DNA of 64,000 nucleotides, from NCBI GenBank assembly GCA_000091205.1, contig AP006502.2. One strand, written 5' to 3'. Shown in pieces: positions 1-64,000 of this stretch. Made by a program: the position numbers and the translations under genes. The stretch's first letter is position 1. The number at the start of each line of letters is the position of its first letter. Source of the stretch: Cyanidioschyzon merolae (lineage: Eukaryota). A model generated the notes under the pieces. That model had not been told where the DNA came from. It did not search any database and worked only from the letters and a program-made list of their open reading frames with translations.

Positions 1-99
1 TCCTCGCAGCATTGGATTCTTCCAACAAATTAATCTGTTTACAAATCCCATATTTGATCGTAGTTGCAACGAAATCGACAAAGTTGTTCGCACCTGTTC

Positions 100-5729: not shown

Positions 5730-5754
5730 TTAGAGTCTCAGTAGACGCAATGGG

Positions 5755-5790
<36 letters not shown>

Positions 5791-7535: not shown

Positions 7536-10435
7536 ACGCGCCTCGGAGTCAAGCGTGCAGCGCGACAACAATTGCGAAAGGAGTTTGGAAGGCGCCCTCG
7601 GGGCATGTGCAGGGCCCTGTCCAAAATGTGTGGTATATCCTATTTGGCATCTGAAAAAAGTCACCCGCTTACGATCTGTCCGCTGCGAGCAACGTGTCAG
7701 GCTGCGCGCTGTATATTTGTCACTAAATAGTCATAATTGTTCTAGGATTGGTAGTGGGTCCGGGCATGTGCCGAGCGCCCGACAGCATTGCCCGTGTGAT
7801 CTGCGGCGCTCGCGCACCTTGACGTTCTGGTTCGATTCCTCGGTGCTATCCATAGAAATAAATGCGAGCATGAGCGTCTGCAGTGCTCGGACACCATCAT
7901 GTTTCCGAACGTTTCCAGTTGGTGCATTTATTCGAGGAGGGCGCTGCGATCGCATGGGAACAAGTACAAGTTTGAACGCTGCGTAGCGTCTGATGCCCAG
8001 AGTCTGGACTGAATGGAAACGAACTTAAAGTTTGAGCATGGTCGGTATAGCCGTCGGTGGGTATCTCCCGTCCAGAGAGCTGTACCGCTGGTGTCTGTAG
8101 CACTGCGTCTGTTCCAGATTCGAATAGAAACAGGGAACTGCGCGCTTTGTACTTTCTGTCATGAGTTTTTCCTGCAAAATTTTTTAGACTTCCAGCCACG
8201 ACATTCGCTATGCACCTCGAGAAGCTTACAGATTCAAATGCCTTCTCAGGATACTTCATCGTGTTTTTGGAGCGGCGCTTTCGACGCTTCGTCGATGGAA
8301 TTCTTTATGCCATCTTTGTCAAGATGATTCACGGGGCTCTTGAACGAGCGTTGGTACAAGAACTGATATCACTATCGAATTCACAGGTATATGCCTCCAT
8401 GTGTCTTTGTTCCTTGCGAGTAGCATGCTCGAGTCACGCATTCTTCATGATTGGGTCCGCTTGTTTCAAATCCATTCCTCGACGCTGGATGGATGATGGA
8501 GAAATCGAAAAAGTCCCATGACTACTTGTTTACCAGCTTGGATTTTGTTCCCGCTATTCGTTTCCCCATGGTCAACATCGCGTTCCACACACCAATTATC
8601 GAAAGGGATAGCATGCGCGTGCAGCCGACAGAGTGCTCGCCGCAGAGATCACCCAAAAGTAACCGGTAATTTCAAGATACAGCACTGGACTCGAAAGCGG
8701 AGTAGGGCGTTGAGGGCGGCCTCATGCACCCGTCATGGACTTGTGCTGAGCGATGAGGCGAGCGCGTTTGCCCCTCAGTGCAGCGCTCGGAGCAGCGGCC
8801 CAGATCGTACCTATATACATGTATATTGAAACACCTGAGCACAGTCCAAGTTTCACCGCTACGATCTACGCGCCCAGGCTGTACACGAAGAACATGAAAA
8901 CGACAAGCGAACCGCAGATCGCAACTTTCATTTGTGCACAACAAGCGTCGACTCCCACCAAAGGCGGTGTAATCGGAGCTACCTCGCTGCCACCAACATC
9001 TGTCGACTACTGCCGATAAAGCTGGATGGAAAGGGGAAACAGGCCGGTTTAAAGCCAGAGCTTCGAGAGAAGCAAAGCAAACATTTGCAGATGTAGCTCA
9101 CATCGGCCAGCGTTTATGACATTGCGACGAGACCCAAACTTTCGTATATGCACCGGAATGCGTAAAGTGTACCCGTTTCATTGTATGTTGACATTGGCGT
9201 TGAGCAATGATAAATTCGACGTGTAGCCGCGGAACCAACAAATGCTGTGCTCGCCCCGTGGCCGCAAAAAACCGCAACAAGACAGGTGAATGCCCTTAAA
9301 CGACAACGGTACAACGCGTGGATGTGCAGACGACGACAGAAATGGCCAAATGCGAACAGGCATCGACATACTGGGGCTGCTCAGTGGCCCGCGCCAGACG
9401 ACCAGTGCGCAGTGAACGCACCTTCTGGCTCGGTGTGAAACTATTCTGAATTTTACCGGAAGCATATTCGTGCTTGTGCTTATAGAGCAAGGCGTGTGTG
9501 AGACGCATCTGGACTTGCGCGATACGCACGCTCACTGTCGACATGCCGACGGGGATTTTCGTACTCAGCGTTACCGCGCGGGGACACCACAGCGCGTTGC
9601 GCACGGTACCTCGAGCTTCCGAAATGCGCGGTTGCAGCGTTTGGAATACGTTTACGCTGGGTCTACCTCCGAGCTAGCCGTCAGCGACGGCACTCGGAGG
9701 AGCAGCGTATCCGCCCGAAACGGAGCATTTCTTGCGGTGTGCGACACGCACCGCATTCGGCTCCCCATGGAGCTGGTGTCAGTTCCGAGAGCGCGCTCAT
9801 CGTTGCCAAATGCCGGAGCTTGCGCGCGGCGTTTCGTTTTATGTGACTCCGGAATGATGCACAAGGCGTTCTTGCTTGATATTCTGTAGCGATTTGCGCT
9901 CTTGCTGCCCACGAGCAGCCTCGGCAGTTACGTGATTCCGCGTCGTTTCCAGTGTACTGCGCTCGCTGGTTGTGCCTATGCTCCAGAACGACGCGAGCGA
10001 AGCGTCGCGAGAAATACACAGTACTCCCGCATGCTGACGTGACCAAGCGTTCCACGACGGGTCGGGTGACGGCAGCTATTGGCGACGCAACTCGTTTCTC
10101 CATCGAGTCAGTAACTCCAATGCCGTTATGCGCAGCTCTGAACGTACGTTGCGAGTCGCTTGCATCCAGCAAACGAGTGGAATTTTCATCCGCAACCTAA
10201 ATTCATGATCCATTCGCCATCCATACAGTGTCCTGGATACAACGGTTCTTCGGGAGAGGATCCCGTATTCCTGGAAGCAGCGCTCATCGTAGAGCGCATC
10301 GTGCCCGCTGGCACGACGCTGAGCGCCCGTGTGGCGGCCTTGAAGGCCGATCGCGCGTGCCCTAGCCATGGCGGTTTCACGGCATCGTTGTGCCGGCGAG
10401 CAGGATACGCGAAAGTACCCATACACCGTGGCTGA

Positions 10436-14902: not shown

Positions 14903-15892
14903 TTTTTTACGCAGCTTGAGCGTCAAATCGAATACGGTATTACAGAACACCCCAAGGGTCGATAGCGTAAGTAACGCTTCGAACGGAATCGCTCGAGGTC
15001 GGATGCGTTCGAGAGATTTGCCCGCGCATCTGGCGTCGCGATCTCCGCGTTGGACCTCCGGAAGATTCCCTGCGAAGCGCTGCGATACCCGTTACATGTT
15101 CTTTTGCGTGGACGAAACGTTACCATTGATGCGGGGTGTCGGCCTGCAGGCTGCGTACGGGTAATCGAGAAGGCGTCTATCATGCAGCGCGCTGCGTTCA
15201 AGTTCCACGGTTCATAATTTCCTCTGTAATATTCAGGTCATTGCTTGCGTGCGATCGGGTGCAGAATACCTGCCTTGCTGCTCTCGACACAGTATCTATA
15301 CCGGTGGTGCGGTTGCAGCACGGAGACAGACGGGCTCGGCCGCACCACAGAGGGCGTCGGCTCGAGGAATGCTTCCATCGATAAGGAATCGGGACTCATG
15401 ATCATTCTGGGAGTCTGCACGCTGCCCAGATAGACGCACAGACTGCAACAGCGCGAAGCAAGTCGCTGCGTGATCAGTGCACCAGGGCGAAGCTCGGACG
15501 CATTTTACCCTGTGCTAGTCTTTGGATACACTGCGTTGCGCACAAGCCGCTCAGGTCTCGCCACAGCACCCGGCACTGCTGACGCACACAGAGCGCTCGT
15601 CCAGCAGACTCTAGTAGACTCATCCGGATCGCGAGGCCTTCCTCCTAGAAGGTAAACGTACGAGACCACGGAGATTGCTTCCCCTTTTCAACGTTTACCG
15701 TAGAGATGGAACGAAATTCGTACCGAGTAGCTGGTTCGTAGTCCGTTTCCCTTGCTTTTACCGATCGTGTTGCATCCTGAGAAGATGCGCTGTCGCCGCC
15801 GCCTTTAATGCCGCTGGGCGGATGTTTGAAGCGCATGGCTCGCTTCTGCAGTAATCGCTGTGACGAAAGCGTTGCTCTCCTGTATCTTTAGA

Positions 15893-16262
15893 CAAAGGAC
15901 CCGCGATCCCTAGAGGTGGCTATTGCCGTGTTGCACACTCCCTAGGCAAAGCTTGTCTGATCTGAATATATACGCAAAGGATCCGCGATCCTTAAGGGTG
16001 GCTATTGCCGTGTTGCACACTCCCTAGGCAAAGCTTGTCTGATCTGAATATATACGCAAAGGATCCGCGATCCCTAAAGGGTGGCTATTGTCGTGTTGCA
16101 CACTCCCTAGGCAAAGCTTGTCTGATCTGAATATATACGCAAAGGATCCGCGATCCCTAAAGGGTGGCTATTGCCGTGTTGCACACTCCCTAGGCAAAGC
16201 TTGTCTGATCTGAATATATACGCAAAGGATCCGCGATCCCTAAAGGTGGCCACTTTAGCGTC
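15893..16262. repeat. Minisatellite of about 4.4 copies of an 83-bp unit, each carrying AATATATACG, about 150 bp upstream of the POL5-like start codon.
   Basis: The unit caaaggatccgcgatccctaaagggtggctattgccgtgttgcacactccctaggcaaagcttgtctgatctgaatatatacg recurs at 15893, 15975, 16057, 16140 and 16223 with over 95% identity. Confidence 0.9.
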
Positions 16263-37544: not shown

Positions 37545-38154
37545 CTATTCGGCTAAGACGATCGTACATACCGACTTGTCATTACCAGAGCGCATGCGGA
37601 GTTGCTTCCGTATCCGGGTATCAAAGCAGCCTGTTCTTTGCGTTAAGGGCTCGGACAATGCCCAGCGAAACATTGAATGTCCCACGACGGTAGAGTGTAT
37701 AAAGACACCCGCGCGCAGACGCTTCCCAACGTTTCTGGACCCACCGACTGCTATCGGTTTCAATTTCTCTTTGCAAACTTGGAGCTTGAGAGGATGTCCC
37801 GCAAAGTTGGCTGGTACCAGCTCCCCGGGTTTCGTTTTCAGCACCGCACATCGTCGGATGCCGTTGACGTGTCGGTTCACGAACTGCATGCGTTTATTGC
37901 ATCTGATGGAACTCACCATTGCAAGGATTCCTAGAACTAGCGCCCTCTGTGCCACTACAGCCTTGTCATCGTCCGGTCGGGCAAACACCTTTTCTTGTCT
38001 GTCTCTCATCGTCATCTTCTTCCTCGTCACGTGCTTATCTTCGCTCGATGGTCGGCGAGATGAGGATTTTTTCGTTTTTTCGGCAGCCGGTGGCGGCGGT
38101 CCTCATGGTTCCCAACTGTCATGTCCATACGTTTCCCACGTCTTTTATATTTGA
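37545..38154 (-). mobile_element. Relic fragment (copy c) of the TnpB/Fanzor-like element, with a degenerate RuvC-III region and 3-prime module, lying just 3-prime of the RPS5 gene.
   Basis: Minus ORF 37545..38030 contains CNKRMQFVNRHVNGIRRCAVLKTKP, a decayed version of VNRD-NAA-NI-RCAVL. Its DNA aligns to copy a (positions 150-420), and an MCGAENETRGAG peptide in frame 37621..37851 parallels MCGAEDETRGAG in copy a. No intact domains remain. Confidence 0.45.
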
Positions 38155-38357
38155 AAATGAACGCACTTCGAACACATCTGCGATAAACGGCGAAACGGCA
38201 TTTGATGACACGCACCGAGCGGTGACTCTCCAACGAGGTAAACGACTATAGGAGAGAGAACCAGCCTCGCTAGCGCCGATGATCTCATGGCAGCATGCAA
38301 AGCGCACACGCTGCTTTCCTCACCTGCACAGTAACATGCATTGTGTGCAGTATCTCC

Positions 38358-45206: not shown

Positions 45207-45493
45207 TTTCCGCGGACAGTTCCGTTACACCTCCTAGAAAAGAAGGCAATACCAAACTACGTTGAACAGACGGCAGCCGCGCACACCTGTTCGTTTTTGT
45301 TTCCAGTAGCAGCACGTTTCCATGGACCATGGATCCCAGATTGCGGGGTGGATGGATATTGTCTTTCGGGAAAGCGTCCATCGTGATGCATCCTGCCTTA
45401 TCGTTGCATTCCTCGTGATTCCTCTCTGATATACTGGTCGTTGCGTATGTTGTATGGTGCGCCATACCTACTTTGTACACCCCGCACAAGCGT

Positions 45494-46651
45494 TTAAACT
45501 ACTGGAGCGGATGCTGCAAGGCATGCACGGTCACTCGATAGAGTATACGAATCGACCAGTATATCCGAGAAGAAGCATGGGCTATGGGACTCGGAAGTAG
45601 ATGGAATGATGGACGTCTTCCCGCGCATGGCCACACCAAACGCCGTTCGAAAGTCGAACGACGCCAACGGTGTACAGTAGTGGCGGGAAAACCGCGCCCT
45701 AGACAAAACGTCTCCAACTGACGTCCAGACGCCTCCCGCCTTTTTGGACCGGTCACCTACTACTGATTCCAATTCTTTCTCATATAAATCGACTTTGAGT
45801 GATTGTCCAATAAAGTTCTCTCTTGTCAGCTCTGGAGGTCTTTCCTCCAGCACCGCACATTTCCTCATATTGATTGCGGCATTAAAGTCTCGGTTCACGA
45901 GCTCCATCCGTTTCTTGCCATCACTGGTTGTACTTACTAATGCGAGTAGTCGACGAACTTTCGCCCTCCATTCCATTTGCTCTTCCTTCAGCGGTCCGTA
46001 CTTTGCTATTTCCTCAGGGCTCCTCTGGCACTTTTCCATCTCGGCCCTTTGAAGTGTGCACCCCAGTTCATGGTGTGTATACGATGTCCGAAACTCATCT
46101 ATTGGTATCGTAACAGAACGCCCTGCGCACTCCTTGTACACCCTCGTCGTTGGAGCTGGCGTAGTTCCTTTTTGTGTCTTCCAGCACCCTGCTCTGTACG
46201 CTAACACGAGCCTTTGAGTCTTGTCCTCTTTGAGGGCACTCAACTCATTGAAACAATTCGCGAATGCCCGCGGCTTCCCACAATACAAATTCATTCGTAA
46301 ACGTGCCCACCGGGGCTTGGTATACTCCTTCCACAGCGTATCCCAATGCGCCATGCGAACTTCCATGAATTTCCGAAAGGCTTCAAAGTCCGCTCCTCGG
46401 TTAGTCACGTCGCTCAAAGCTTCCAGGTGATCTTTCATTCCTGAATTCCACGTCTCAATTTTCTTTCTCGTATTCATGATTCCCGATTCTCGATAGTATC
46501 TCGCTCTCGAGAACCTCAAAAGACGCATGTGTTTCTGACGTAAGTTACCATCAGCACCATCTTCCGCACGCTTGGGTACAGCGATGGTTACGATATTCGT
46601 ATTCCCAGGGTCCGCGCCAACGACAAAGTCGTTATCTTGCACTTTCTGCAT
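45494..46651 (-). pseudogene. RuvC-domain portion of the copy-B TnpB/Fanzor-like gene; its ORF reads through the ancestral stop into the 3-prime module.
   Basis: Copy C terminates 9 codons after RCAVV (TAG at 60732-34), whereas copy B has CAG at the aligned position and continues more than 100 codons into sequence that is conserved non-coding in the other copies. Confidence 0.55.
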
Positions 46652-47130
46652 CGCAGGATCCGCCTTCTTGTTTTCTTAATGCTTCGTCGCGTCAACGACA
46701 AGGTCGTTATCTTGCACCTCCTGCATCACAGGATCCGCCGTCTTCTCATCTTCATCCTTCGTAATGTCAACAACAAGGTCGTTATTCTCTACCTCCTGAG
46801 TCGCAGGATCCTCTTCTTTGTTTTCTTCATGCTTCGCCGCGCCAATGATAAAGCCGTTATCCTGCACCTCCTGCGTCGCAGGATCCGCCGTCTTCTCATC
46901 TTCATCCTTCGTAATGTCAACAACAAGGTCGTTATTCTCTACCTCCTGAGTCGCAGGATCCTCTTCTTTGTTTTCTTCATGCTTCGCCGCGCCAATGATA
47001 AAGCCGTTATCCTGCACCTCCTGCGTCGCAGGATCCGCCGTCTTCTCATCTTCATCCTTCGTAATGTCAACGACAAAGTCGTTATTCTCTACCTCCTGAG
47101 TCGCAGGATCCTCCTCTTTGTTTTCTTCAT
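46620..47130. repeat. Perfect 150-bp tandem array (two 75-bp half-units; about 3.4 units) inside copy B. It encodes [25 protein letters not shown] / [25 protein letters not shown] and duplicates the segment just N-terminal to RuvC-I.
   Basis: tcttctcatcttcatccttcgtaatgtcaac recurs at exactly 46741, 46891 and 47041. The repeat peptide [17 protein letters not shown] parallels the native [20 protein letters not shown] that opens the RuvC-I block. Copy C has only one unit. Confidence 0.9.
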
Positions 47131-49822
47131 GCTTCGTCACGGGTGCAGCCGAGGGTGGAACTGGACGATCTTTCTTCAACCGCCGATAGTGTACACACAT
47201 GGCTACGCCATCGGTTTCGATCATCCCAGTGAATACCTTTTGTTTGCTGACTTTGAGACGTTTGAAATCGAAGATACTCTTCCAGTACGTCTCCCGGTTT
47301 TCACGGATGAAGTCCTCCCTGCTAACATTGAACCCCGGACTGATCTCCTTCATGATGCCGTAAAGGACGCCTGAATCGATACTCACAAAATACTACTTGA
47401 TGTTGCACAACGGAACCACGTTTAACTGCTTCCCCATTAGGAAAGCCTTCCGTCTCTCCCACTCTTCATTTGTCTCTTCACTCAGCTTCATCTCCGCCTT
47501 GCGTTCGAGTTCACGATTCAGAAACACAAAATAGCGCAGGATGAGGCGATAGTACCTTTCCTTATCTTTTTTTAACTCTGACACCTTTTCTGTTGGATTC
47601 GGTAGCCCCATGACTGCGCCGTGCTCTTGCATAGCCGCACGGATTACAGAAGCTTCATTCGTGCTCTCGTTTGACGCCTTCTTCTCGAAAAATTCGACCT
47701 CATCTTCATGCCTGCGATCTTTCGTGATGGCATCGATAATCGCCCATATCCCCTTGCGTGAGATTCCCGGGTACAGCGCAAACACGGCGCGTATCATGAA
47801 ACGTTCGAGGTTCATCGTCAAATGGTTCTTCAGGTTCGTCAGGTACTTGATGGCCCCGTATTCGTAAATATCCGCGTCACCTGTATACCGAGTACCATCG
47901 AAGCTGTAAAAGAGATGTTTTTCGTGCAGGACGTGCACCCGCTCATTTCCCCTCCGCGCTTCCGCTGTACCAATCGTCATGTGACGAATAAAGGTCTCGT
48001 CGGAAACTCGTTCGGAAGCTCGACTGTTTCCATGTGCGTCATTTCGCGATACATCTCCCCGCCAAATGCACTAGTCCTGACGACACCTTTATTATAGTCA
48101 TGGAGTTCGGCTCAACACGGTTTCGGATGGACTCTCGTAACTTTTTCTTGCACGGAACCTTGATCTGTCCAAGAAGACAGGCTTTCATAACCAGTTCGTT
48201 GTAGTGTGGTCTTTCTTGCAGCCATCGACGTAGGACCTCCCTCCTTTCGGTCCTTCTTCTCTTCCTTTTCTTCTGGACTCGGTACTGTTTTTTGTTTTTT
48301 CTGGCAGCCAGCGACACTTGGCCTCCAGGATCGTCGACTTGGTTTTTGATAACATTTCCTTTTTTATTTTTCTTGAAAAAGAGCGCTCTTTGAACGCTTC
48401 TCCTATAAACCGCGAAAAAGGACTTGAATACACTTATTTGAGGGTTGAAACACGATTCAACTGAAAACTGCAGTTTGCTACGACTTCAACGGAAATAGAA
48501 CTTTTACTTTACTGCTGGATCATAAAGGTTTGGATCGTGTCTCCCTTCAACGGCGACAAGCGCGTCATATCTCATGACTGCCAGATCTCCCAGGTGCGCG
48601 TCTCAACCGCGCTATTTAGAAAAAAAGGAAAGAGACTCACGATTCACGAGCAACGAGCTATCGATTTCTTTCCCCGTCTACATGAAACATTAAAAGGGGG
48701 AAATTTTTTCCGCATGTCCGAAAGTTTAACGTCTAGGCGGAAAGTCGCGCGGGCCGAACGAGTCTGCCAGGCTCGTGCTTCATGCCCCTCCCAGCGGCGG
48801 GTTCTTGAAAGAAACCTGTGCTACTCGTCCACAAAGCAATTCATTCTGGGACTAGGGACAGTTAAGCTGCATCTGGGCATCGCCCTGGTCGCAGTGGACT
48901 CCTAGGATATCGATTCGCGCTGTCGCAGGCAGTAGGTCTGCCAGCGTAGCTTGCAGGCTCCCAGAATGATCATGAACCTCGACCCTGATTCAGCCGTAGC
49001 ATTCCTCGAGTCGATGCGCTCTCTTGTATGGCATGTCGGTTCTCTCTGTCCATGCTGCGACCGCGCCGCCGCTATAGGCGCTATCGCGGACGCTCGCGAC
49101 GGGCAGTCGGCACACGGTCGAACTTGAAAATAATCGGTACCTCCGAGGGAACGTATGGGAAGCGGAACTTGCGAGGAGGGCGCGGAACGATGGAAACCCC
49201 ACAACGCGCGGTTACCGAGCACGCTCTCAGGGATTGCTGCTCTGTGGGTCAACGTTTCGTCCAACGAAAAGGAATCGAGTGTGTCCTTCACGCGCGCCGC
49301 TAGGCAGGTACACTCAACTCGTTCAGTGGTAAAGACGTTTTTCCGACGGTTCACTCGATATATCACAACGCATTGCGAAAATGAGTTGTCACTGACGTGT
49401 CCGTGGACCAGCCAGTTCATGTGCCGTATATGCGCTTTTTCTCAACAGATAGGTGAACGACCTTCCAGGTCCGTGTGGTGCTGTCGAAAGCGTTCCCGTC
49501 GAAACGGTACACATATGATCAAAGCGGGCCTGTTTGGAGGCATTCTAGATGCAGCTCTGGATATTGATCGTAGCTATGTAAATAGTATCCTTGCGAGAGA
49601 GCAGCCTGGCACCGCTGCCGCAACGGCAACCTTTGAATCTTGAACACTCATTCCAGTTTTAGATCAAATTTGACACCCGTCACTGGACGGCCATCGACGC
49701 CTGTCTCAGACGCTTCATCACCGCCGCCACCGACGCCGCTGGGTACCACCGAGCGCTGTACGCTTCAGCGCTCATCTGTGTCTACGACAAGGCGAGCTGC
49801 ACCGGCGCTCGGAACTCGTTCC

Positions 49823-50662
49823 ATGTGCGCGTTTATAGTAACTGGTTCACAGTGCTCTCGAGCGCAAGCAAATGTCTGGACGAAGGAGACGGTAGCGTGC
49901 AGGCGGGGACCAAAACCGCGCAGCAGCACAGCAAAGGGTCGTCCCCTGCGCATGGGTGTGGAAAGGGTACCCCCGCCCAAACCGGGGCAAGTTGTGGTTG
50001 CACCTTCCATTCTGTCGGCGAACTTTGCCCGACTCGGTGAAGAGGTAAGCGCTGTAGACCGCTTCGGTGCAGACTGGATACATGTTGACGTTATGGACGG
50101 GCACTTTGTACCGCCAATAACCATCGGCGCAGGCGTCGTGGAGGCGCTGCGTCCGGTTACACAGCGGCCGCTTGACGTTCACTTGATGGTCGTGAATCCA
50201 GACCAACACATCCCCGCCTTTGCCAAAGCAGGCGCTGACATCATCAGCGTGCATTGCGAGGGCGAGTCGACGATCCACCTGCATCGAACGCTGCAGATGA
50301 TTCGAAGCCTCGGGTGTCGTGCCGGTGTCGTTCTGAACCCGGCCACGCCACCAATGGCAATTGAGTACGTCCTACCTATCGTGGACCTGGTGCTGGTGAT
50401 GAGCGTAAATCCGGGGTACGGCGGGCAAGCATTTATTGACGAGGTGTTGCCGAAAATCACCGAGATACGGAAGATGGCTGATCGCCTCGGCAAGCATGAT
50501 CTCTGGCTCGAGGTCGACGGCGGCGTGAAGGGCTCCAACGCCTGGCGTGTTGTCGAGGCGGGTGCGAACGCCCTGGTAGCCGGTTCAGCAGTGTTTGGTG
50601 CCAAGGACTACAAAGCCGCTATCGATGAAATCCGGGCCGCGCGAAGACCTGTTGCTGTCTAA
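49823..50662 (+). CDS. RPE: Ribulose-phosphate 3-epimerase (RPE), possibly with a short N-terminal targeting peptide. An alternative start at 49952 would give the mature-size enzyme.
   Basis: [18 protein letters not shown]...[17 protein letters not shown]...[13 protein letters not shown]...[14 protein letters not shown]...[28 protein letters not shown] is the canonical RPE TIM-barrel consensus. The track ORF starts at a TTG (49640); in-frame ATGs are at 49823 and 49952. Confidence 0.9.
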
Positions 50663-52838
50663 AGTGAATTCGGGAACGAATTGGGCTCCATTTGTGTCCG
50701 GTCTTCATCTCGTGGTTACATAGAAACCCGCTGGACAGGGTCATCCAGAGCCGATGCACATCGAATTCAGTGGGCACGCTCTCCTAGTAGTACCGAGCGT
50801 CGTTGCTCTTCTCTGGGGAGGGATCGCTAGATGCCGCGTTTTCGCATACGACTCGGAGGGAGTGCATCGGCCGTGTGCAGCCACCAGACTGGAGCTTCAA
50901 TAACACATGGAAAGCGTTACAGTACCCGTTGTTGAAGCGTGACATGTCGCCACTGTGGCAAGCGCGCCGGCTGCTTTCACGCTTGAGGACGCCAGGCCTT
51001 TGCTACAGATGCGAACAGGTTCACGGACTGGAACAAGTCTCCGAGTTTCTGTTTAGTTTCCGTCGGAAAAGCTGTTCAAAGCAGCAGGAAAAGGCAGTAG
51101 AGAAGCGTGAGCCACGACAGCTTCAACAGTGGTCACCTCGTTCACAGCCTGTAGCAGCAATGATGAGCGCTAGCTGCGGCTGCAGTTCGAGCGACGCAAC
51201 GTACGTCGCTTACGGAAATGGAGCACATTTAGCAGAATCTCAGTTGTTGACGTTTCACTAAAAGATTTGGGTTGAACACTATCGCACAGAGTCGTCAGTC
51301 GATGTTTCTACGCATACGCACCCGATATTCTCCCGTTCAATGCAGTGCTGTATGGCGACCTATCGTCGCAACGAGGAAACGAGGTTTGTCCATCCAGCGC
51401 AGGCACGTGCGTTCCAGGCACGGGGCTAGGCTCGTCGCCGCGGCTTCTGTTGCTGCTTCTTTTGATGAAAACCCCCAATGACAACTGAGCAGCCTCGAGC
51501 TGATACCCCTGATACCAGACGGCAGAAAGCTAACACAGGCCGAAAATCAGAGTCGCTGGTGCTGAACTGGTCCAGCATGCGTCCGGATGAGCAGCTGGTG
51601 CTTCGGGACTGCGCACGACAGGCAGCTCTTCGAGGAACAGGGGCACTTGTCGGCGGCGCACTGCTCTCTAGTCTGGTGCTCTACGGTTTACCATAGCCGG
51701 CTCGTACTGGCTCCACACGCTTTTTCCAGGATAGTTGGCGTGCGCGCGTTCCAGCCTGGTTGCGGGTGCTCGCTATTGTCGCCACTGCTGGGGTGAGCGG
51801 CTACGCTGGAGCGCCGAGCACGGTGCCCAGCTGCTTGGAGCGTATCTTGCGACTTCCGAACTCACACCTGGCGGCGGAGGTGCGACTCAGTATCGAAGAC
51901 TGGCAGACGCACTGGTCGCAACGAGTGTTAGACTTGAAACCGCTGCAGCCGGCTGCCGAACCCGAGCAACACCTCGTACGGAGGGCTTCTGCGGAGACTG
52001 CACCCAGAGACAGCGGTCAAGCGCCCGTCTCATGCCGTACCAGGGGAACGGCACCCAGAGACAGCGGTGCTGCGCTTCCGCGAAAGCACGTCATTCGACT
52101 CTGGAACCGTTTTTTTCATCAGCGGCTACCGTAGCCGCATTTGCCGCATCAGGAATTATCGACTGCATCTCTCAATAGCAGAGAAAGCGCGTCGCAATTT
52201 GATCAGGAGCGTACGAGGTGCCTGTCGTCACGGTAACGAATCCGGTACGATGTGGGGTTCAAAAGCGAAACGTTGGTGCTCCAGCCGCTCGCGACGGTAG
52301 CCTGCAGAAAAGTGGAGAATTCGCGTTATGTGAAGTTGTACGCACGTTCGGCATCTCGATCCAGCAGGTATCGTTGCGCATTCATGAAAGCTTTGAGCTG
52401 GTCCTTGACGGTTGCACCGTCCCGCAGGAAAACCAAGACATGCTTTGTTGAAGGCTAAGCGTAGATAATGTAACGCTCATTCCGATGCAGTGCCGCACAG
52501 TGGAGAAAGTGTCGAGCGTGTTTGACTCTTTGCAGACTCGCTCCGAAAACGATTTCAGGACGATAGTCCCGCCAAGGTGGAATCATAAAGCGCTCATTTG
52601 CACAGATTTCTCGTGGAGTTGGGAGTGTCAGTTGCCTGGACGCCTGGCGAGGCGTCTGCGCGCGTGCTGAGACGAAGCGCACATAAGAAGAACGCTGGCC
52701 TGTGTGTCTGCTTTTTCTCAAAATGACTATTGTTTAGGCATAGCCGCTGCGCGTCTACGTCAGTCGTGTGCAGATGAGGTTGCCACAAGGGCCTATGGAT
52801 TGTCGCTTTATAGAATTTGTGTTGGACCGGGTTTGCGA

Positions 52839-56358: not shown

Positions 56359-58957
56359 CGCTGTGGCATCTTAGAGAGGTCGGAGAGCGCAGCCGTTTCA
56401 AGGCTTCGGAGAGAGAAGGCTGCGCGCACAGGTGGCCCTGGAAAACGCTGCGAACTCGAGTGTCTTATTTCCAGGTTGGACTGCATAGCAACAATTGTAA
56501 TCATACGGCTCAAAGGAAGAAAGAGAAATTGTAGTGTGGTCTCCGCTAAATCCCCAAGAAAGGAAAACTTGAGCGGGTCGCCTGTTTAGAGTGATGCTCG
56601 GCTGTGGAGCGTTCATAGCGCAGGTGGCTCCAGCCAGGCTTTCCTGGTGCTGCAAGGCGCCGCGTTTTTATGCTACTGGCCTCTCAACGATAGCAAATTG
56701 TTGAAGAGAGCTGGGGTACGAATAGTGATGGCACACGATATGAGAAAAAGTGTGTGATACAACCGTCGCGGAATTTTTGGCGCTATGCCGTACCTACTAC
56801 TACCGGCTCGTTCCAAGAGACAGCTACTAAGCCGATATTAGTCCCGTAATGGTATATGCGGATGCATATTATAACTTACATGTTTGCACGCGGGGCGCGC
56901 CGTCGCAGGAGCGTCTTGGCGTGCTCGAGGTATGCTCCCGCCCCAGAGGCAAGCGATCGGGAGCTTGTGGTAGGCAGGATGCGGAGAGGACGAATATCGT
57001 GCACTTTGTGTAATACAAGCTCGACTACACACGTCTGGGTAGACATAATTCAGGAACGTGCCGTACGCGCGAAGGGGACGCTCAGTGCCCACTGACGTGC
57101 GTAGCGGGCTTTTGCACAGGCGCGACGCAGCAGAGACCGAGGCGCCTCCTTTGGACCGCACTTTCAGAAGATTCTTCATGGACCAGTATCTGGTGAGCGG
57201 ACCCATAATGCAGTCCTCGTGGTGTCTGAGAGGTTTAGTGACACGGTACTGGCCGCTGCGGCCAAACCGCTATCCTCAGAGCTATGGGTTGGCTTTCCTG
57301 GTGCCTGACATGTGGATTGCGCATAATCACGAGTCTCGCCCTCAGTTGTAGCATGCAATCGAAGAAAGAATCCTCTTCGTCACCGCTCGAGTTGATTCTT
57401 TCCAAGGCGAGCGGCATTGATGCGCACCGCGTAATCGCCAGCCACGTTGTTTTCGATTGGCAGCTTCGACCCACCACGTGAGCGTTCTTCGTAGGTATCT
57501 TGGAAAGACGCATCGGAATACACGCTTCATACGGGCAGTACGAGCCTCGTCTCCTTGACCTCGCGTCAGGCCTTGATTCGGATGGAGCGTCGGTTTAATC
57601 CGATGACGGATAATTTCTGAGGCATGAGTGCCTTGCAGTTTCGAGCTGGAAAGCAGGCTCAGCGTGGACAAAATGAGCGTATCAACACTATCTAGAGGAG
57701 AATGTGACAAAGGATTTTACACGGAAACAAGTTGAGATCACATAGAAAGAGTCTTCTACCTGAAAACGATAAAATGTACTTCCGAGGTGTCCCCCGCCGG
57801 ACTGTCGGTGGCGGCCAGCCCGTGCATGATCGGAAAAACAAATCGGACTCGAAGATAAAGTAAACCGTGGCGGATGCAGTACCCCTGGTATTTGGTGGGA
57901 TCGTCCATCTGTAGTGGAAATTCTCGCAAAAGCGATTCGTCGAACGCGGTGCAAACCGGCCGAGCACTACACGTCCGTCTAAACGTTTTACTCGCAGTGC
58001 CTAGCACCGCTTGTTGAGGGCTCGATGCCTGTATGCAGGCTTTCGCGCGGAATACTAGTTGTGGTTTGCAACAGGGATGCTTCAGAGCCTTGCCCGCATC
58101 CGCTTCTTGTCGACGAAAGGAACGTCAACGGAGAATATTTATACTGGAATACGGAGACCTCAGCAAATTGATTTCGTAGAAAGATGCAGTCGCGGCCCGT
58201 TTTTCGCCACGGTTCGAGATCACTTTGCACATCTAACTGAAATGCGGAAAGAGACAGGAAAATGCATGTCTAGTCGGGTAATGATACACTGCGAGCGATT
58301 TGACGTTCCCACCATCATCTCATCTAATATTGGTATAGGTTGGGCCTCATTTTCTTACTCACTCGCGTCGCAGATCGCGAAGGCCAAGTCCGTGCACGTC
58401 AGGATTGCATCGCATCTTCGCATTTGGAGGCGTTATGCTTTCATTATGCACACATGGACGCGGCACATAGTATGCGACGACGCTGTCTGTACACTCGAAG
58501 TACCTGAATGCTGTCGCTTGGGCTGGTTGATGATCTGACGAGATGCCAGTTGCAGCATCCAGGGCGAGAAGCATTTCTCGAGGACTTATAGACCTATCTC
58601 GCCTCCCATGCCTGTTAAAGTATCCGAGAGGAGCATATCGGCGCGTCGGCGGTTAATAGACGCACGAAATCTACTTACCAGATTCCGCTCTACCCAGAAT
58701 CTCTCAGGGTAAGAGTTCAATACAGTCCTGCGTCTGGCCGGACAAGCGCTGTCGGTGTGCTTACGGTGCGCGCCGCGAACACGTACTGCTCTGGATTCGG
58801 AAAGCAACTCTGTCTTGAGGAGAGAGCGCTGGAACGCGCGTCGGTAACTAGGCTACCGTATAGGTCGAACGTTTAAGCGGTAAAAGCCTTTTGTGCTCGT
58901 GTTTGTGACTCGCTCAGCGTCTAAACAGGCTTTACGCTCGGTTGCGAGGTTCTTGCT

Positions 58958-59944
58958 ATGTTGCCGAGCACTTTTGGGTGTGTGACTCGTCCACCGAAAG
59001 TCTTAGCACTAGTACTAGTTCTAGTTTTCCTCGTGTGGACGTACTTTTCTGCCAGCTTCCTATGTTCGAGCGGTTTCTGGGCTTTCTCCTCGCGCCTTAG
59101 CGCTGGAAGTAGCGACAAGCACGTTCTTTCTGCTGGTTTATGCAGATCGACGCTACTTGACACCGTTGAGAATATCAGTCGGAGTCACGTCGAACAAGCT
59201 CAGGGGTCGTCGTACCCATACCTCTTTCCGCCAATTATTCACCAGATTTGGCTGGGCAACCGTCCTTTCCCGAGTAGCTTCTCACGCAGTCAGGAGAGTT
59301 TCCGGACCAAAAATCCAGATATGTACTATGCGCTCTGGCGTGATAATGATATTGCGTGTTTAATAAGGCGATTCTATCCTGTTTTGGCTCCGGTGTATGC
59401 GAAGATTACCCGGGTAGCGACCACTTCAGATCTCGCGCGATACCTGGTACTCTATGTTTTCGGAGGTTTCTACTCAGATACGGATACGGTTTGTTTGCAG
59501 CCGATCCGGAAATGGCCCATGCTCGAAGGAACGCAAGCTATGGTCGGTCTAGAAGCGGAATTCAGCCATGTACCCAATTGGCAAGACATGATTGTCGTCA
59601 GGCAGATTCAGGTATCCGTATGGACATTGGCCTCTACACCGCTTCATCCACTGTTTGGTTCCGCGATTCACGGTATTTTCGTGAACTGTACACGTTTGTC
59701 TAGGGAGAAGCTCGAAGGAATGGATGTTATGGAAGTCGCAGGCCCAGGGTATTTCACTGATACTGTGTTCCATTATATGCACGCTTTTGGTGCTGGGTAC
59801 GCGAATCTTAGCGGTTTGTCGAGACCCACTCTGTTCGGGGATCTGCTGGTTCAGCCTCTGCATGTTTTTCGCTGGGAGGGTCGCGGCCCCGAAGAGGAGG
59901 CCTGTATCCAACACTTATTCGGTCAGTCTTGGCGCTGGCGGTGA
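58958..59944 (+). CDS. GT32-family glycosyltransferase (Och1/Gly_transf_sug type, DXD motif), a type II membrane protein.
   Basis: An N-terminal signal anchor (VLALVLVLVFLVWTYF) is followed by PIIHQIWLGNRPFP...YYALWRDNDIACLIRRFYPVLAPVYAKITRVATTSDLARYLVLYVFGGFYSDTDTVCLQPI, matching the alpha-1,6-mannosyltransferase/GT32 sugar-binding region with DTD as the DXD motif. The ATG at 58958 was verified. Confidence 0.7.
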   Translation: MLPSTFGCVTRPPKVLALVLVLVFLVWTYFSASFLCSSGFWAFSSRLSAGSSDKHVLSAGLCRSTLLDTVENISRSHVEQAQGSSYPYLFPPIIHQIWLGNRPFPSSFSRSQESFRTKNPDMYYALWRDNDIACLIRRFYPVLAPVYAKITRVATTSDLARYLVLYVFGGFYSDTDTVCLQPIRKWPMLEGTQAMVGLEAEFSHVPNWQDMIVVRQIQVSVWTLASTPLHPLFGSAIHGIFVNCTRLSREKLEGMDVMEVAGPGYFTDTVFHYMHAFGAGYANLSGLSRPTLFGDLLVQPLHVFRWEGRGPEEEACIQHLFGQSWRWR

Positions 59945-60479
59945 CCGCCGCCGCCTCAGTGGCAAGAAATCAACGTCATAATGGTGCTTTTGGCTACGAG
60001 GGGAGATCGAATGTGATAAACGCCGGATTTCTGAAGGCGAAGTCATCATGGAGTACCTGACTGAATGCTTTTAACGCTTCGCAATTTGAGATTGCTATAC
60101 TATATACTGGACGGCAGCAGTTCCTTCATTTTTATTAGACTCCAGCCTGCGTACGGAAGAGATAGCGTTTCAGCATGCTCACTCTGAAGACTCGAATCAG
60201 AAGACGTTCGCAATCTTCGTAATGCGTCAAGGGCGACTTGCCCGATGCAGAGCACCATCTCCATGTTTTGAACGGCATGGTCATCTTCGTGCCTTTGTTG
60301 GTACACTTTTGCCTCCGAGTCAAAGGATGTGTGTTAGAATCTTCGCTTACTGTTGTTCATGTAGAAATGGTCGAACTAAGCGTATGCGATGACGTAAATC
60401 GTCCTGTAACAGAGATGTGACATCCCTGCGGCGAGCAAATACCCGTGGTCTCTATCTTTCCGAGCTTTCGGAAAAAATT

Positions 60480-62940
60480 GTTCGGGGTGATTGTTTCCGA
60501 ATTGAGGGTTGCGATTTTTATGACGACGACGCCAGCGACAGCAAATGTCTTCCAAAGAAAACGTTGCTGCCAGCGGCGCACAGTAGTGGCGAGTGACCCG
60601 CCCTAGACAAGACGTCTCTAGCTGATGTGCAGACGCCTCCCGGTCTTAATGGACCGGCCACGTACTACGGCTTCCAATTTCTTCTCATATTGATCTACTC
60701 TGCAGGATTGTCAAACAAAGTTCCCTCTTGTCTACCCAGGAGGTCTCGGCTCCACCACCGCACATCTCCGTATATTGATAGCGGCATTCAAGTCTCGATC
60801 CACGAATTCCATACATTTTTTGCCGTCGTTGGTTGAACGTACTAATGCAACTAGTCCTCGAACGTTCGCCCTCCTTTCCATACGCTCCTCCGTCAGCGTT
60901 CTGTACATTTTGACATCCTCGGGACTCCTATGGCACTTTTCCATCTCGAATCTCTGGAGAGTACACACCAGCTCATAGTGTGTATACGATGTTCGGAACT
61001 CATATACAGGTATCGTAACGAGACGCCGTGCGCACTGCTTGTCCACCCTCGTCGTTGGAGCTGGCGTAGTTCCTTTCTTCGACGCTCATCGCCCTGCTCC
61101 GTATGCTACTCTGAGCCTTTGACTTTCATCCTCCTTCAGGGTACTCAACTCATTGAAACAATTCGCGAACGCTCGCTGCTTCCCACAATACGAATTCATA
61201 TGCAGACGAGCCAACCGGGGATTCGTATACTCCTCCCACAGTACATCCCAATGAGCAATGCGAACTTCCATAAATTTCCGAAAAGATTTAAAGTCTGCTC
61301 CTCAGACGGTCACCTCGCCCAAAGCTTCCACGAGATCCTTCATTCCTGTGTACCAAGTCTCGATATTCTTCCCCGCATTCGTTATACGAGATTTTCGATA
61401 GTATGTCGCTCGCGAGAACCTCAAAAGACGCGTATATTTCTGGTGCAAGTTGCCGTTGGAGCAATCTTCCGCATGCTTGGGTACAGCGATGGTTATGATA
61501 TTCGTGTTCTAGGAGTTACTACCAACGACAAAGACGTTCACGTGGGGATTACACGTCCCCTGGCCGTTCTACTTCTTTCCGTGCATCGGTATGGGCGATA
61601 ACGAAGACGGGATAGGACGAAGTACATGCAACCGCTAATAATGTACACATCTGTATACGCCATCGCTATCGATGGTCCCCGTGAGTACTTTTTTTGACCG
61701 GTTTGGGGCGTTTGGAATCGAAATAGTTCTCCCAGCAGGTGTTCCGGTCTTCGCCGGTTACCTCTTTGTTGCTTCCATCGAGCTCAGGACAGATCTCTAT
61801 CATGAAGGCAGAGAGAACTCTGGGGTCGATATTCACAAAACATGACTTGAACTCGCATAACCGGCCGACAATGAAACGCTTCTGGAGAAGACTTCAATGT
61901 CGTTTCTTCCGTCCGTGATTTTTGCCACACTCAAATCCATATCGGCCTCGCGTTCGGGTTCTCGGTCCAAAAAAATGAAGTACGGCAGGATAAAAGGGAT
62001 AAATCTCTCTTCGTCTGCCTTTGATCATACCTGACAGTTTCTCCCTTGAGATGACAAGCCCCGAGACTGAACGAAGTTCTAAACTAGCGGCGCGGATAGC
62101 AGAAGCAGAATTCGTCGACTTGCATGATGTGCTCTTGTCGACGAATATGATCTCCTGTTCATGCTAGCGAGCGTTCTTGAGAATATCGATGATTGGCCGC
62201 ATCCCTTCGCGAAAAAGGCTCGCGTACAGCACAAAGCGGGCGCCTATCGTGAAAAAGACGAAAGATAAGATTTTTTGGTTCCTCGCATTCGTGAGGCAAC
62301 TCAATGCCCTGTATTCGTATCTTTTTACGTCACACCGATGTCCAGCACCATTGACGCGGTAATTGTCGTAAATTGTGAGGGGGGCATCAGCCAGCTCATT
62401 GCTCTTTGATGCTTCCCCATTGCGAGGACTCAGGTGGTTGAAGAAAGTCTTTTTGAAAAATAATTCCGGAAATATCACTTTTGCGATATGCGTTACGTCG
62501 TGATGCAGCTCGATCTGCAAATGCGTCAGTCCAAAAGAAAAGTTACGACCAGACCTGGAGTGCGAATCTACGCGGTCTCTGATAGCGTCTAGGAGCATTC
62601 AGTCGTACGGATAATTGATATGCTGGAGACGACAGGATCACACAACCATATCGTCGTACGGACATCACTCTTGCAGCCTTCGTGGTAGCGCCTCCACATC
62701 TAACTTCTTCTTTTTTCCCTACTCCTCGGAAATAGCTACTACGTCTCGTTTTTTTTCCAATATTCGGCATCCCCGGTCATCCACAACACAACACGTCCAG
62801 TTCCATAAGTGAAAGATGTTTTGGGAGAAAAACTCATCGGACGCTTGTGCGTAGAGCGGCGAATATCGGTTGAATACATTTACTTGAAGATTGAAATACC
62901 ATTGAAGCCAAAACAATACTTTGCTAGGATCCGATCGCAA
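60480..62940 (-). mobile_element. Degenerate TnpB/Fanzor-like element, copy C (subtelomeric), homologous to copy B along its length but fragmented by frameshifts and carrying a single repeat unit.
   Basis: ORF 60732..61046 reads EFRTSYTHYELVCTLQRFEMEKCHRSPED...MEFVDRDLNAAINIRRCAVVEPRPPG. ORF 61086..61271 (MEVRIAHWDVLWEEYTNPRLARLHMNSYCGKQRAFANCFNELSTLKED) matches the copy-B peptide MEVRMAHWDTLWKEYTKPRWARLRMNLYCGKPRAFANCFNELSALKED. ORF 62164..62598 matches the copy-B N-terminal segment. DNA homology with copy B runs from about 60540 to 62935. Confidence 0.55.
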
Positions 62941-63883
62941 GTACAAGAGGCCCCGATAAAGCAGTCGCTCAAGAAGAGGTCATTACCGCGTTTCTATTGA
63001 TCGGCGAGGCGCACGTCGGGTGACGAGACGGCCAGAATTCGCGATGCGTTACTATGGCACACGACATAGAAAATGCCAACTAGTAAATGATATACACAAA
63101 CGGGATAGCAAGTAATATCGCCACCAACCTGAAACCTTAAAAGGAAGAAGTTTTTGCGTATGGCCACACTGTTAGATTAAGCGGAAGGTCTGCGAGCCGC
63201 GAAACCCAACCGGCCAGTCCCCCGTGTGACCCTTCAGTGGCGGGTGATGCGCCGCACCTAACCACCCCAACCGAACGCATTTGATTGTGGAATCATGAGC
63301 GGGTATGCTGCATCAGAATCTCACTTTGGGCAAGGCGGACTTCCAATACAAAACTCCGCGCTATACCAGGCAGAAGAGCTGGAATTAGAGCTTGGAGGCT
63401 TCCAGAAATATAAATAGCACTGATTCCGTGTTGCATGAAACAAGCATCAACCGACGCGCTCAGTAGTATGTGAAAGCTACTGTGCTCCCCAAGAGCATCA
63501 GCACCAGCGATGGAGAAACTTCGGAGGGTGCAGACGGCAGGCATCCGGCGCAGAATAAAAGCGTGAAACGACCAGCAAAGCCGAGAGTAAGTAAAAGCGA
63601 TGCAATGCACAGAGATTGTTCAGCACGATAAAGGATTTTACGAACCAAAAAGACGAAGCGGCGATCTCAGCCATCTGATCAGTGGAAAAATTCTGCAAAC
63701 CAGTAAAAGCAAAACGTCCGAAGTAAATTCCCGATGAATTTGGTATATAATCTATGTCGCGGTAACAGATGCGAAAAAGCCCAGATCGTGCCGCGAGAAG
63801 TGATACACTTGTGGGAAATGAAATAATACACGTCGCTATCAAAGATGCTTTCGCACTAAGATCATCAAACCTATGTGAAACTG

Positions 63884-64000
63884 GGGGAACGGGCGGAGCG
63901 GGGGGAACGGAGGGAACGGGGGGAACGGAGGGAACGGGGGGAACGGGGGGAACGGGAACGGAGGGAACGGGGGAATGGAAGGAATGGGGGGAATGGGGGG
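63884..64000 (+). repeat. Telomere-like G-strand repeat array at the window end: irregular GGGGGAACG / GGAGGGAACG units grading into AATGGGGGG.
   Basis: gggggaacgggcggagcggggggaacggagggaacggggggaacgg...gggggaatggaaggaatggggggaatgggggg runs to the last base, with the G-rich strand 5-prime to 3-prime toward the end. AATGGGGGG is the telomere unit I recall for cyanidiophycean red algae. Confidence 0.6.

Follow-up and report, generated by a model that had tools for sequence, protein, structure and literature searches.

The window analysed here, a stretch of 64,000 nucleotides from Cyanidioschyzon merolae (contig AP006502.2), ends in telomere-like repeats, and the element lying close to them (copy C) is very probably an old, inactivated copy of the Fanzor1 element CMe-1A, which would be part of a star-like radiation of its family, would have drifted neutrally since, and would owe its position next to the telomere to chance and/or to its being a passenger in a joined terminal block of 11.3 kb. 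The family itself is already known. It was catalogued in 2007 as an element of 3.2 kb with 253 copies, carrying truncated ORFs in all of them, transcribed, randomly distributed over all the chromosomes and accounting for 5% of the genome (Nozaki 2007), and its assignment to Fanzor1 followed in 2013 (Bao & Jurka 2013, Mobile DNA 4:12). The latter study reported about 150 copies of CMe-1A, roughly 80% identical to the consensus and lacking terminal inverted repeats and target-site duplications, and published the CMe-1A consensus and the 734-aa CMe-1 protein in its Additional files. The interspersed element of Nozaki 2007, which has 253 copies of 3.2 kb and a truncated ORF resembling WSV486, is CMe-1A. 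Being one more decayed member of a known repeat family, copy C carries little weight in itself.

Extent and decay of copy C

A full-element nhmmer profile, built from metagenome copies only and leaving out the sequences of the window, matched copy C in a single hit at positions 63670-60519 of the minus strand (envelope 63710-60498, E about 0, profile positions 51-3290). Moreover, positions 108-3164 of the published CMe-1A consensus (3169 bp) correspond to window positions 63593-60550 in one HSP of 3086 columns, with 72.1% identity. According to these data, copy C is a near-full-length, decayed CMe-1A of about 3.17 kb, extending from about 60532 to 63703 on the minus strand; its 5' end was placed by a multi-copy alignment with seven other copies, and the ends of the element are known to about 10 nt. 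The first-pass annotation had enclosed the element within 60480-62940 and overlooked a non-coding module at the 5' end, about 760 bp long (62940..63703, minus strand), which is delimited by the alignment with the seven other copies and by a profile of the 5' module only (63643-63132, E=1e-48). This module is the counterpart of the 5' 635-bp part common to CMe-1A and TE-N2_CMe, as described by Bao & Jurka 2013. A solo 5' module resembling TE-N2_CMe lies elsewhere in the window, at 15099..15761 on the plus strand (nhmmer E=2e-108), where positions 59-621 of the CMe-1A consensus align to 15165-15742 with 72.6% identity. Copy C equals CMe-1A in its length, in its full-length alignment and in its 5' non-coding module, but it is more diverged, with 72% identity to the consensus compared to roughly 80% for typical C. 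merolae copies.

As a by-product of these corrected boundaries, the 5' module is found to reach to about 175 bp from the telomere repeats, a gap that had been estimated at about 1 kb. The intervening spacer (63704..63878, 175 bp, GC 0.41) was found only in four orthologous contigs (L001-L004) among the loci fetched, and it is followed by an array of telomere-like 9-mers (63879..64000, plus strand), made up of variant AACGGGGGG/AACGGAGGG units and then of canonical AATGGGGGG units, for which TRF gave a period of 9 and 14 copies; Nozaki 2007 gives AATGGGGGG as the telomere repeat of C. merolae. The junction between copy C and the telomere repeats is identical in four metagenome contigs. The orthologous contigs share 99.5-99.8% identity across copy C and the same telomere junction, the position being shared in natural populations. 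No target-site duplication, which the first-pass annotation had linked to independent insertion, is visible at the ends of copy C or of the other full-length copies, ends that are defined only to about 10 nt by profiles that included flanking bases.

Four ORF fragments of copy C, all on the minus strand, fall exactly where they had been placed from the sequence: the N-terminal fragment of the decayed Fanzor1 gene (62164..62598, 144 aa, also retrieved by tblastn with the queries P0084 and P0033), a middle fragment (61086-61271), a fragment of 104 aa (60732..61046) in which RuvC-II (YEFRTS) and RuvC-III (DRDLNAAINI) are still readable and which matches Pfam PF07282 weakly (E 0.022), and a last one at 60540-60690. 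That the gene is broken by frameshifts was borne out as well, since the homologous frame switches at least three times (62598-62029 in frame 0, 62024-61902 in frame 1, 61908-61687 in frame 0 and 61688-60597 in frame 1) and the conceptual translation of 669 codons has 11 in-frame stops. The RuvC-I remnant (61500..61526, minus strand) reads VVGSNS*NTNI, the ADPG motif having become SNS followed by a stop (asterisk), so that the catalytic Asp is now an Asn. Copy C is dead as a gene. With the gene destroyed and the RuvC-I aspartate lost, nothing is possible in cis, and RNA-guided DNA cleavage by copy C as encoded would be impossible.

The end of the window had been described as AT-richer and gene-poor; the first statement holds, and the second holds in part. 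The GC content is 0.487 in copy C and 0.513 in the region 56400-60531, compared to 0.565 over positions 1-45000, but the AT-richness is partly the element's own, since the GC content of the 3' 1 kb is 0.505 in the consensus of the sampled copies and 0.499 in copy B, another copy in the window. A RIP-like GC-to-AT mutational bias was ruled out as its source: the substitution spectrum of copy C is unbiased, with a ratio of GC>AT to AT>GC changes of 1.16 (family median 1.13). As for genes, the region retains a conserved glycosyltransferase gene (PF04488; 58958..59944, plus strand, exact protein match); no other ordinary gene stands between it and copy C. Exact matches to proteins of the window came from hot-spring metagenomes only.

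Assignment of the family to Fanzor1 and the 3' module

The reading of copy C as a degenerate Fanzor-like element is supported, besides the alignment to the CMe-1A consensus, by profile matches to three Fanzor1 proteins of solved structure. A profile of 49 sequences (A4), having the family member P0121 as its first sequence and including diverse homologues from a search of 1.84 billion representatives, matched in the PDB the Fanzor1 proteins of Parasitella parasitica (9cf0, E=1.6e-19), Spizellomyces punctatus (SpuFz1, 8gkh, 5.9e-12) and Guillardia theta (9cer, 1e-7), with no further match below E=0.1. These matches are due to the addition of the diverse homologues to the narrow family profile; neither phmmer nor the narrow profile retrieved a relevant match from the PDB. 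The homology covers both the split RuvC domain and the region that precedes it, and the RuvC-I DPG, RuvC-II DEFRT/DEYKT and RuvC-III NRD (with its aspartate) motifs align between the family and the Fanzor1 structures. Over the 49 diverse homologues, D484, which aligns with the DPG motif of the solved proteins, and E656 do not vary, and the conservation of D725 is 90% or more; the D-E-D triad is thus present in the family and absent from copy C, where SNS-stop replaces ADPG. On these alignments, the family of copy C is Fanzor1, and an intact CMe-1A would encode a TnpB-like RuvC nuclease. At least one uninterrupted ORF of the family, of 752 aa, exists in related populations (P0121). The value of this result lies in demonstrating directly, by homology, that the cyanidialean family is Fanzor1, though missed by Pfam, which gave only sub-threshold matches to PF07282 (Cas12f1-like_TNB) on the ORFs of copies B and C. 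AlphaFold2, run from a shallow family alignment, gave a pLDDT of 33.6.

The zinc-finger label that the first-pass annotation had attached to the 60732-61046 segment finds no support in the sequence: between RuvC-II and RuvC-III there is no CxxC...CxxC pair in copy C or in the family consensus (DEFRTSYTHHELGCTLQRVEMEKCQRSPE...VNRDFNAAINIRRCAV), which has only scattered Cys/His residues. The CMe-1 family differs in this from SpuFz1, whose CxxC zinc-finger pairs it lacks, and the interval may hold a non-canonical metal site. The family further differs from the characterised Fanzor1 nucleases in that acidic 25-aa repeats, forming a variable array, immediately precede RuvC-I, and copy C differs from them also in having no RuvC-I aspartate.

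In Fanzor and TnpB elements, the omega-RNA comes from the 3' end, where its sequence overlaps that of the ORF terminus. The family has a conserved non-coding 3' module overlapping the ORF end, which in copy C occupies 60532..60690 on the minus strand and is conserved in 43/43 distinct copies, a sharp loss of similarity marking the 3' boundary of the element when all 43 are aligned. We consider it a candidate omega-RNA scaffold; if the family works as characterised Fanzor1 systems do, an omega-RNA would be produced from this end, with the adjoining DNA supplying its guide. In the proposed helices, 85% of the cells pair, compared to 40-61% when the partners are slid; covariation does not rise above shuffles (135-177 out of 500 reach the observed score), and RNAalifold gave five pairs only. 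The mean fold z is -1.5 in sense and -1.05 in antisense orientation, with values below -2 in 16/43 and 5/43 copies, respectively. In copy C, the module still forms the stems typical of the family (MFE -45.7 to -46.6 kcal/mol, z -1.7). No Rfam family matched anywhere in the window. As delimited, the module can be used for testing as omega-RNA.

Relationship of copy C to the other copies

The comparison copy in the window, copy B, lies at 45641..49263 on the minus strand and is likewise a CMe-1A pseudogene. It has 83-88% identity to the consensus; its gene is interrupted by two in-frame stops and frameshifted in the N-terminal part, and it has lost 1 nt close to the C-terminus. Copy C is collinear with it, as had been proposed, on the same strand: blastn aligns 60569-61538 with 45663-46633 (79.6% over 972 nt) and 61629-62254 with 47177-47801 (65%), with weaker blocks up to 62929. 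The absence of a tandem expansion from copy C was likewise confirmed, with one 75-nt unit against about 7 in copy B; the CMe-1A consensus also has a single unit, and it is therefore copy B that gained units, rather than copy C that lost any.

Over the best-conserved 1-kb region, copy C shares 77.9-79.0% identity with its eight nearest sampled copies, copy B (78.1%) being among them, and 76.7% on average with the 42 other distinct sampled copies; for the other copies, the nearest neighbour lies at 79-98% (mostly 83-87%) and the mean at 77-83%. Copy C is, thus, the most diverged among the 43 distinct sampled copies, with 135 differences from their consensus over 936 columns (median 83). Like CMe-1A as published, the sampled copies are about 80% identical among themselves and have mostly broken ORFs, and neither terminal inverted repeats nor target-site duplications could be made out at the sampled elements, whose ends are known to about 10 nt. 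On these identities the relationship is star-like, and copy C is no special kin of copy B. When homologues were sought with copy C's conceptual translation, an approach ill-suited to degenerate copies, only long ORFs of at most 70% identity were returned, and no close paralogue.

The same strand, the same order of segments and a distance of 15 kb might suggest that copy C arose as a local duplicate of copy B, later losing the tandem array and decaying. We give this almost no credence, for the identity between the two (78.1%) is no higher than that of copy C to unrelated copies, the nearest relatives of copy B are other copies (89.5%), their flanks have nothing in common, and the single 75-nt unit of copy C is the published consensus state; the identities (78.1% to copy B, 79.0% to the nearest copy) rule out a direct duplicate. 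A residual use of copy C, dead as a gene yet supplying, for example, an omega-RNA in trans for an intact Fanzor1 or a telomere-adjacent heterochromatin or boundary, is somewhat less far-fetched and still very improbable: the 3' module keeps its stems, an uninterrupted family ORF exists in related populations and the repeat family is transcribed (Nozaki 2007), but no sampled copy has diverged further than copy C, whose substitution spectrum looks neutral and whose 3' module lacks a covariation signal. The preferred reading, by which copy C inserted or was inherited long ago and would then have drifted neutrally, leaves its telomeric position to two routes that are not mutually exclusive. One would be chance, given a family making up about 5% of the genome, and the other would be passage with the terminal block.

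The terminal block and the rearrangement of the chromosome end

The terminal 11.3 kb of the window comprise, in order, a SpoU methylase gene, an RNase PH gene, the glycosyltransferase gene, copy C and the telomere, and they have a discrete proximal boundary at about 52670-52690, inside a truncated RUS/UVB_sens gene (PF04884; 52206..52676, minus strand; tblastn residues 450-606, 96.8% identity), of whose 606 residues just the last 157, at the C-terminus, are left. Seven contigs carrying the epimerase gene depart from the window at this boundary and run into an intact RUS gene; seven others (L001-L007) align across the junction, and in the two checked directly (L001 and L006) the junction sequence of the window is present. 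Among the contigs compared, the window alone spans the region from the epimerase gene through the junction. Neither the SpoU gene nor the long epimerase ORF had an exact protein match, the epimerase being reached via P0274. Remodelling of the chromosome end, in the direction of the first-pass reading, did, therefore, happen here, at the level of a block; the direction of the rearrangement is suggested solely by the truncation of the RUS gene in the window. The block would have been joined to the chromosome at a break inside this RUS-family gene, carrying copy C along, and since it is joined at that breakpoint, copy C is probably a passenger in the rearrangement.

A role of subtelomeres as a sink or source of dispersed duplicates had been proposed, by which copy C would have arrived through subtelomere-to-subtelomere duplication or exchange and sister copies would lie at other chromosome ends. 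The breakpoint-bounded terminal 11.3 kb, variable among related lineages, lend this some plausibility, together with the shared subtelomeric blocks known in C. merolae and its relatives, consisting of eight element types and up to 20 kb long (Nozaki 2007), the subtelomeric gene duplication of Cyanidiophyceae (Cho et al. 2023), and the density of elements in the window: about 13.5% of it is element-derived, against a reported mean of 5% for the genome, a factor of approximately 2.7, and elements may be locally enriched towards this end of the chromosome. We nevertheless regard it as quite unlikely. The nearest sampled copy is only 79% identical and copy C is almost equidistant from its closest relatives; the 150-253 copies of the family are reported on all chromosomes (Bao & Jurka 2013; Nozaki 2007), with a random distribution according to the latter study; and telomere repeats occur, within up to 10 kb of flank, at 0 of 80 paralogous loci, these being the best-conserved of 236 and coming from fragmented metagenome assemblies, so that degenerate copies near telomeres would be under-sampled. 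Furthermore, the flanks of copy C (56400-58950, 59950-60520 and 63711-63878) match orthologous contigs only, among the loci fetched, and the neighbouring glycosyltransferase, whose exact protein occurs in 49 sample blocks, has the same neighbours in 10/10 places listed. Copy C had also been considered useful for dating subtelomeric exchange; this does not hold, since it is at least 21% diverged from every other sampled copy, whereas the end-variant lineages differ by 0.1-3%, so that its insertion long predates any end rearrangement and cannot date it. That dispersed CMe-1A/Fanzor1 copies are substrates or landmarks of chromosome-end remodelling, with ectopic recombination between copies or breaks made by a still-active Fanzor1 driving the turnover of the ends, is an unlikely though not negligible proposal. 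By this proposal the 11.3-kb block would have been captured by a chromosome that had broken within the RUS gene; another structural difference among lineages (metagenome contig L091) falls within copy B's tandem array.

Compared to the subtelomeric blocks described in Cyanidiophyceae (Nozaki 2007; Cho et al. 2023), the 11.3-kb block is similarly adjacent to the telomere, has a discrete boundary and differs between close lineages, but a second copy of it was not seen among the loci fetched. The SpoU methylase, RNase PH and PF04488 genes are not named in the Figure 3 legend of Nozaki 2007, where chromosome-end genes of C. merolae are given. The end variant mapped here, in which the RUS gene is cut short at 52.67 kb, differs from one natural hot-spring lineage to another and could serve in studies of end replacement in a very compact eukaryotic genome.

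Extent and Decay of Copy C

Copy C, the decayed element beside the telomere, was compared with copy B (45641-49263), another copy of the family, by blastn against the window. A collinear minus-strand match of 60000-63200 to 45663-48483 was retrieved, whose strongest block is 79.6% identical over 972 nt and the next 65% over 635 nt, with the similarity continuing beyond these in two weak blocks. The degenerate copy collinear with copy B, reported in the first-pass annotation, is thus real, and the ORF fragments that it listed are present where it placed them.

In order to define the extent of the element, 80 paralogous metagenome loci were fetched and their element ends aligned. At the 3' boundary, the similarity among the 43 distinct copies is lost abruptly just past the terminal hairpin, which places the 3' end of copy C at ~60532. 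On the 5' side of the ORF, a subfamily including copies B and C has ~760 bp of extra common non-coding sequence; the 5' module starts with ...CGATGACAAAACGTTTACATTG, and the sequence upstream of CGATGACAAAACGTTTACATTG is unrelated between copies. An nhmmer profile of the full element, built from seven metagenome copies without any window sequence, crossed copy C in one alignment (hmm 51-3290 = 63670-60519, E about 0), a second profile, restricted to the 5' module, matched 63643-63132 (E=1e-48), and the consensus of the published transposon CMe-1A (Bao & Jurka 2013, Additional file 2) aligned at 108-3164 with 63593-60550 as a single HSP (72.1% identity). Since the two profile matches and the consensus alignment independently agree, these data indicate that copy C spans ~60532-63703 (3.17 kb), so that the interval previously proposed (60480-62940) was an underestimate and the gap to the first telomere-like repeat is ~175 bp rather than ~1 kb.

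A three-frame translation along the homologous frame revealed at least three frame switches, and the conceptual translation contains 11 stops in 669 codons; copy C is therefore broken by frameshifts, as had been stated. RuvC-I reads VVGSNS*NTNI in place of the family motif, while RuvC-II (YEFRTS) and RuvC-III (DRDLNAAINI) remain legible. Judging from its sequence, copy C cannot give an active protein; copy B is a pseudogene too.

Copy C has one 75-nt unit and, as first described, lacks the 75/150-nt tandem array found at 46613-47138 in copy B. This single unit is the state of the published CMe-1A consensus, which indicates that the units were gained by copy B. The unit is in frame, encodes 25 residues, is acidic, and lies just upstream of RuvC-I; its copy number varies: the consensus and copy C have 1, copy B has ~7, and the inspected metagenome ORFs have ~3 to 6. 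The array appears to act as a hypervariable linker within the nuclease gene. The proteins with the unit considered here are P0017, P0019, P0122, and P0121. The last comes from natural populations (metagenome contigs L011:773-3028 and L012:3261-5516), in which at least one family copy has an ORF that runs for 752 aa or more without interruption and contains all three RuvC motifs.

Affiliation with Fanzor1 and CMe-1A

The Pfam search retrieved only Cas12f1-like_TNB matches, all sub-threshold; profiles made from the family only did not reach any solved structure, and AlphaFold2 on the shallow family alignment gave no usable model (pLDDT 33.6). A profile searched against 1.84 billion representative proteins retrieved 1567 relatives, many of 580-740 aa. 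A broad profile was built from P0121 and 48 diverse relatives. The underlying alignment shows no substitution of the RuvC-I aspartate or the RuvC-II glutamate, and conservation of the aspartate in RuvC-III reaches at least 90%. Against the PDB, the profile matched the Fanzor1 structures of Parasitella parasitica (9cf0, E=1.6e-19), Spizellomyces punctatus (8gkh, E=5.9e-12), and Guillardia theta (9cer, E=1e-7), and nothing else below E=0.1. These matches indicate that the family, which encodes a RuvC protein of Fanzor1 type, belongs to Fanzor1. The Fanzor label of the first-pass annotation was therefore right, and its "ZnF" label was not borne out, as no paired-CxxC zinc finger is present in the sequence.

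According to the consensus alignment, the element of copy C is the already known CMe-1A, described as 3169 bp long and present in about 150 copies, each ~80% identical to the consensus, with no TIRs, undetermined TSDs, and a 635-bp 5' part in common with TE-N2_CMe (Bao & Jurka 2013). This element was also described as a 3.2-kb repeat with 253 copies, spread at random across all chromosomes (~5% of the genome), and with a truncated ORF resembling WSSV WSV486; in strain 10D every copy is truncated (Nozaki 2007). In certain lineages, CMe-1A may remain active.

A 3' module of ~130-190 nt overlaps the last ORF codons (consensus ORF end, ...GRRLHVSWRRFV*), and its conservation reaches the element boundary. 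By analogy with established Fanzor/TnpB biology, this module is a candidate omega-RNA scaffold, the guide of which would be taken from the flanking sequence. In the proposed helices, 85% of cells pair vs. 40-61% with the partners slid, and the sense strand folds somewhat more stably than the antisense one. Covariation in the module showed no excess over shuffles, as anticipated should the majority of copies be pseudogenes under drift, and RNAalifold found almost no structure in it.

Searches with the CMe-1A family also retrieved a truncated copy (185-541), a solo TE-N2_CMe-like 5' module (15099-15761, +), an internally deleted copy (37712-38250), and partial inverted 5' modules just past the 3' end of copy B (45295-45521, +; 45482-45623, -), the family pieces, copy B included, together making up 13.5% of the window. 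The two partial modules form the inverted repeat 45407-45455/45538-45586, and an 83-bp tandem repeat (15893-16250, 4.3 copies, 96% self-identical) lies immediately downstream of the solo module. Some copies have bases at their 5' end, or just outside it, that are similar to the 3' terminal motif of the element, GACGTTTGCTGTTGCTGG, namely TTTGCTGTTGCCGCTG in the 5' flank of the metagenome locus L061 and GACGTTTTGCTTTTACTGG in copy C (63695-63718); this likeness could represent a short terminal direct repeat, a preference for insertion by the end of another copy, or chance.

Divergence of Copy C and the Chromosome End

Identities were compared over the best-conserved 1 kb of the 43 distinct copies. 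A typical copy has its nearest neighbour at 83-87% (full range 79-98%) and a mean identity to all the others of 77-83%. For copy C, the top match is 79.0%, the eight best are 77.9-79.0%, copy B is at 78.1%, and the mean is 76.7%, making it the most diverged of the sampled copies. These values rule out that copy C is a duplicate of copy B or of any sampled copy, leaving the suggested subtelomeric duplication of the copy itself unsupported. It differs from the sampled-copy consensus at 135 of 936 columns (83 for the median copy), with no GC-to-AT bias among these differences. The GC content of the family consensus in this region is 0.505 vs. 0.565 for window positions 1-45000; hence, the AT-richer end previously noted holds, non-element DNA at 56.4-60.5 kb being somewhat AT-richer too (0.513), and is in part owed to the composition of the element family.

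The window ends in 9-bp repeats, namely variant AACGGGGGG and AACGGAGGG units followed by AATGGGGGG units, the latter being a telomere repeat reported from Cyanidioschyzon merolae alone (Nozaki 2007). The last 11.5 kb share 99.5-99.9% identity with hot-spring metagenome contigs stopping in the same repeats. Together, the repeats and these contigs indicate that the window reaches a genuine chromosome end, in a red alga of the Cyanidioschyzon type. Exact matches to its proteins all come from metagenomes; the source may be a relative of C. merolae 10D rather than 10D, or 10D may be absent from the protein collection. Telomere repeats were found in none of the 80 paralogous loci, flanks included. 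At 63879-64000 and at the ends of the metagenome contigs L001-L004, the telomere-proximal variants are AACGGGGGG, AACGGAGGG, and AACGGGCGG, with canonical AATGGGGGG at the very end only; the pattern of variant units in the window is not quite that of the orthologous contigs.

The Terminal Block and the RUS Breakpoint

The terminal 11.3 kb harbor, in this order, SpoU methylase, RNase PH, a glycosyltransferase, copy C, and the telomere. The metagenome contigs with this glycosyltransferase are all shorter than 20 kb, and seven of them start at 52330-52635. Seven contigs with the gene for ribulose-phosphate 3-epimerase (49952-50662 in the window) follow the window until ~52670-52690; past this point they have an intact RUS/UVB_sens (PF04884) gene of 606 aa, as well as 4 kb or more of sequence that the window lacks. 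The window retains only the last 157 codons of this gene (52206-52676, 96.8% identity). In L001 and L006, the two contigs inspected directly, the junction is exactly as in the window, and each of the contigs shown that reach the breakpoint either ends at it or continues as in one of the two arrangements, whose lineages diverge by ~1.5-3% on the centromere-proximal side.

These alignments indicate that the terminal 11.3 kb were attached to the chromosome at a breakpoint within the RUS gene and document a rearrangement of the chromosome end at the level of the block. The truncation of the RUS gene suggests that the arrangement of the window is the derived one. No other copy is less than 21% divergent from copy C, whose insertion is hence far older than this event; copy C is probably a passenger in the terminal block and no clock for the rearrangement, and the proposal to use it for dating subtelomeric exchange does not hold.

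In the metagenome contig L091, collinearity with the window is restricted to 47005-52690 (96.7% identity); within its Fanzor copy (5056-8346), the 3' half lying past the tandem array is only 81% identical to copy B, and farther out the contig has no match to the window. This suggests either a second structural breakpoint inside the Fanzor copy or a chimeric metagenome-assembly join at the repeat. As for the epimerase protein, it is 100% identical to metagenome proteins only, with no NCBI Cyanidioschyzon entry among the listed hits, its best named relative being that of Cyanidium caldarium (82% identity).
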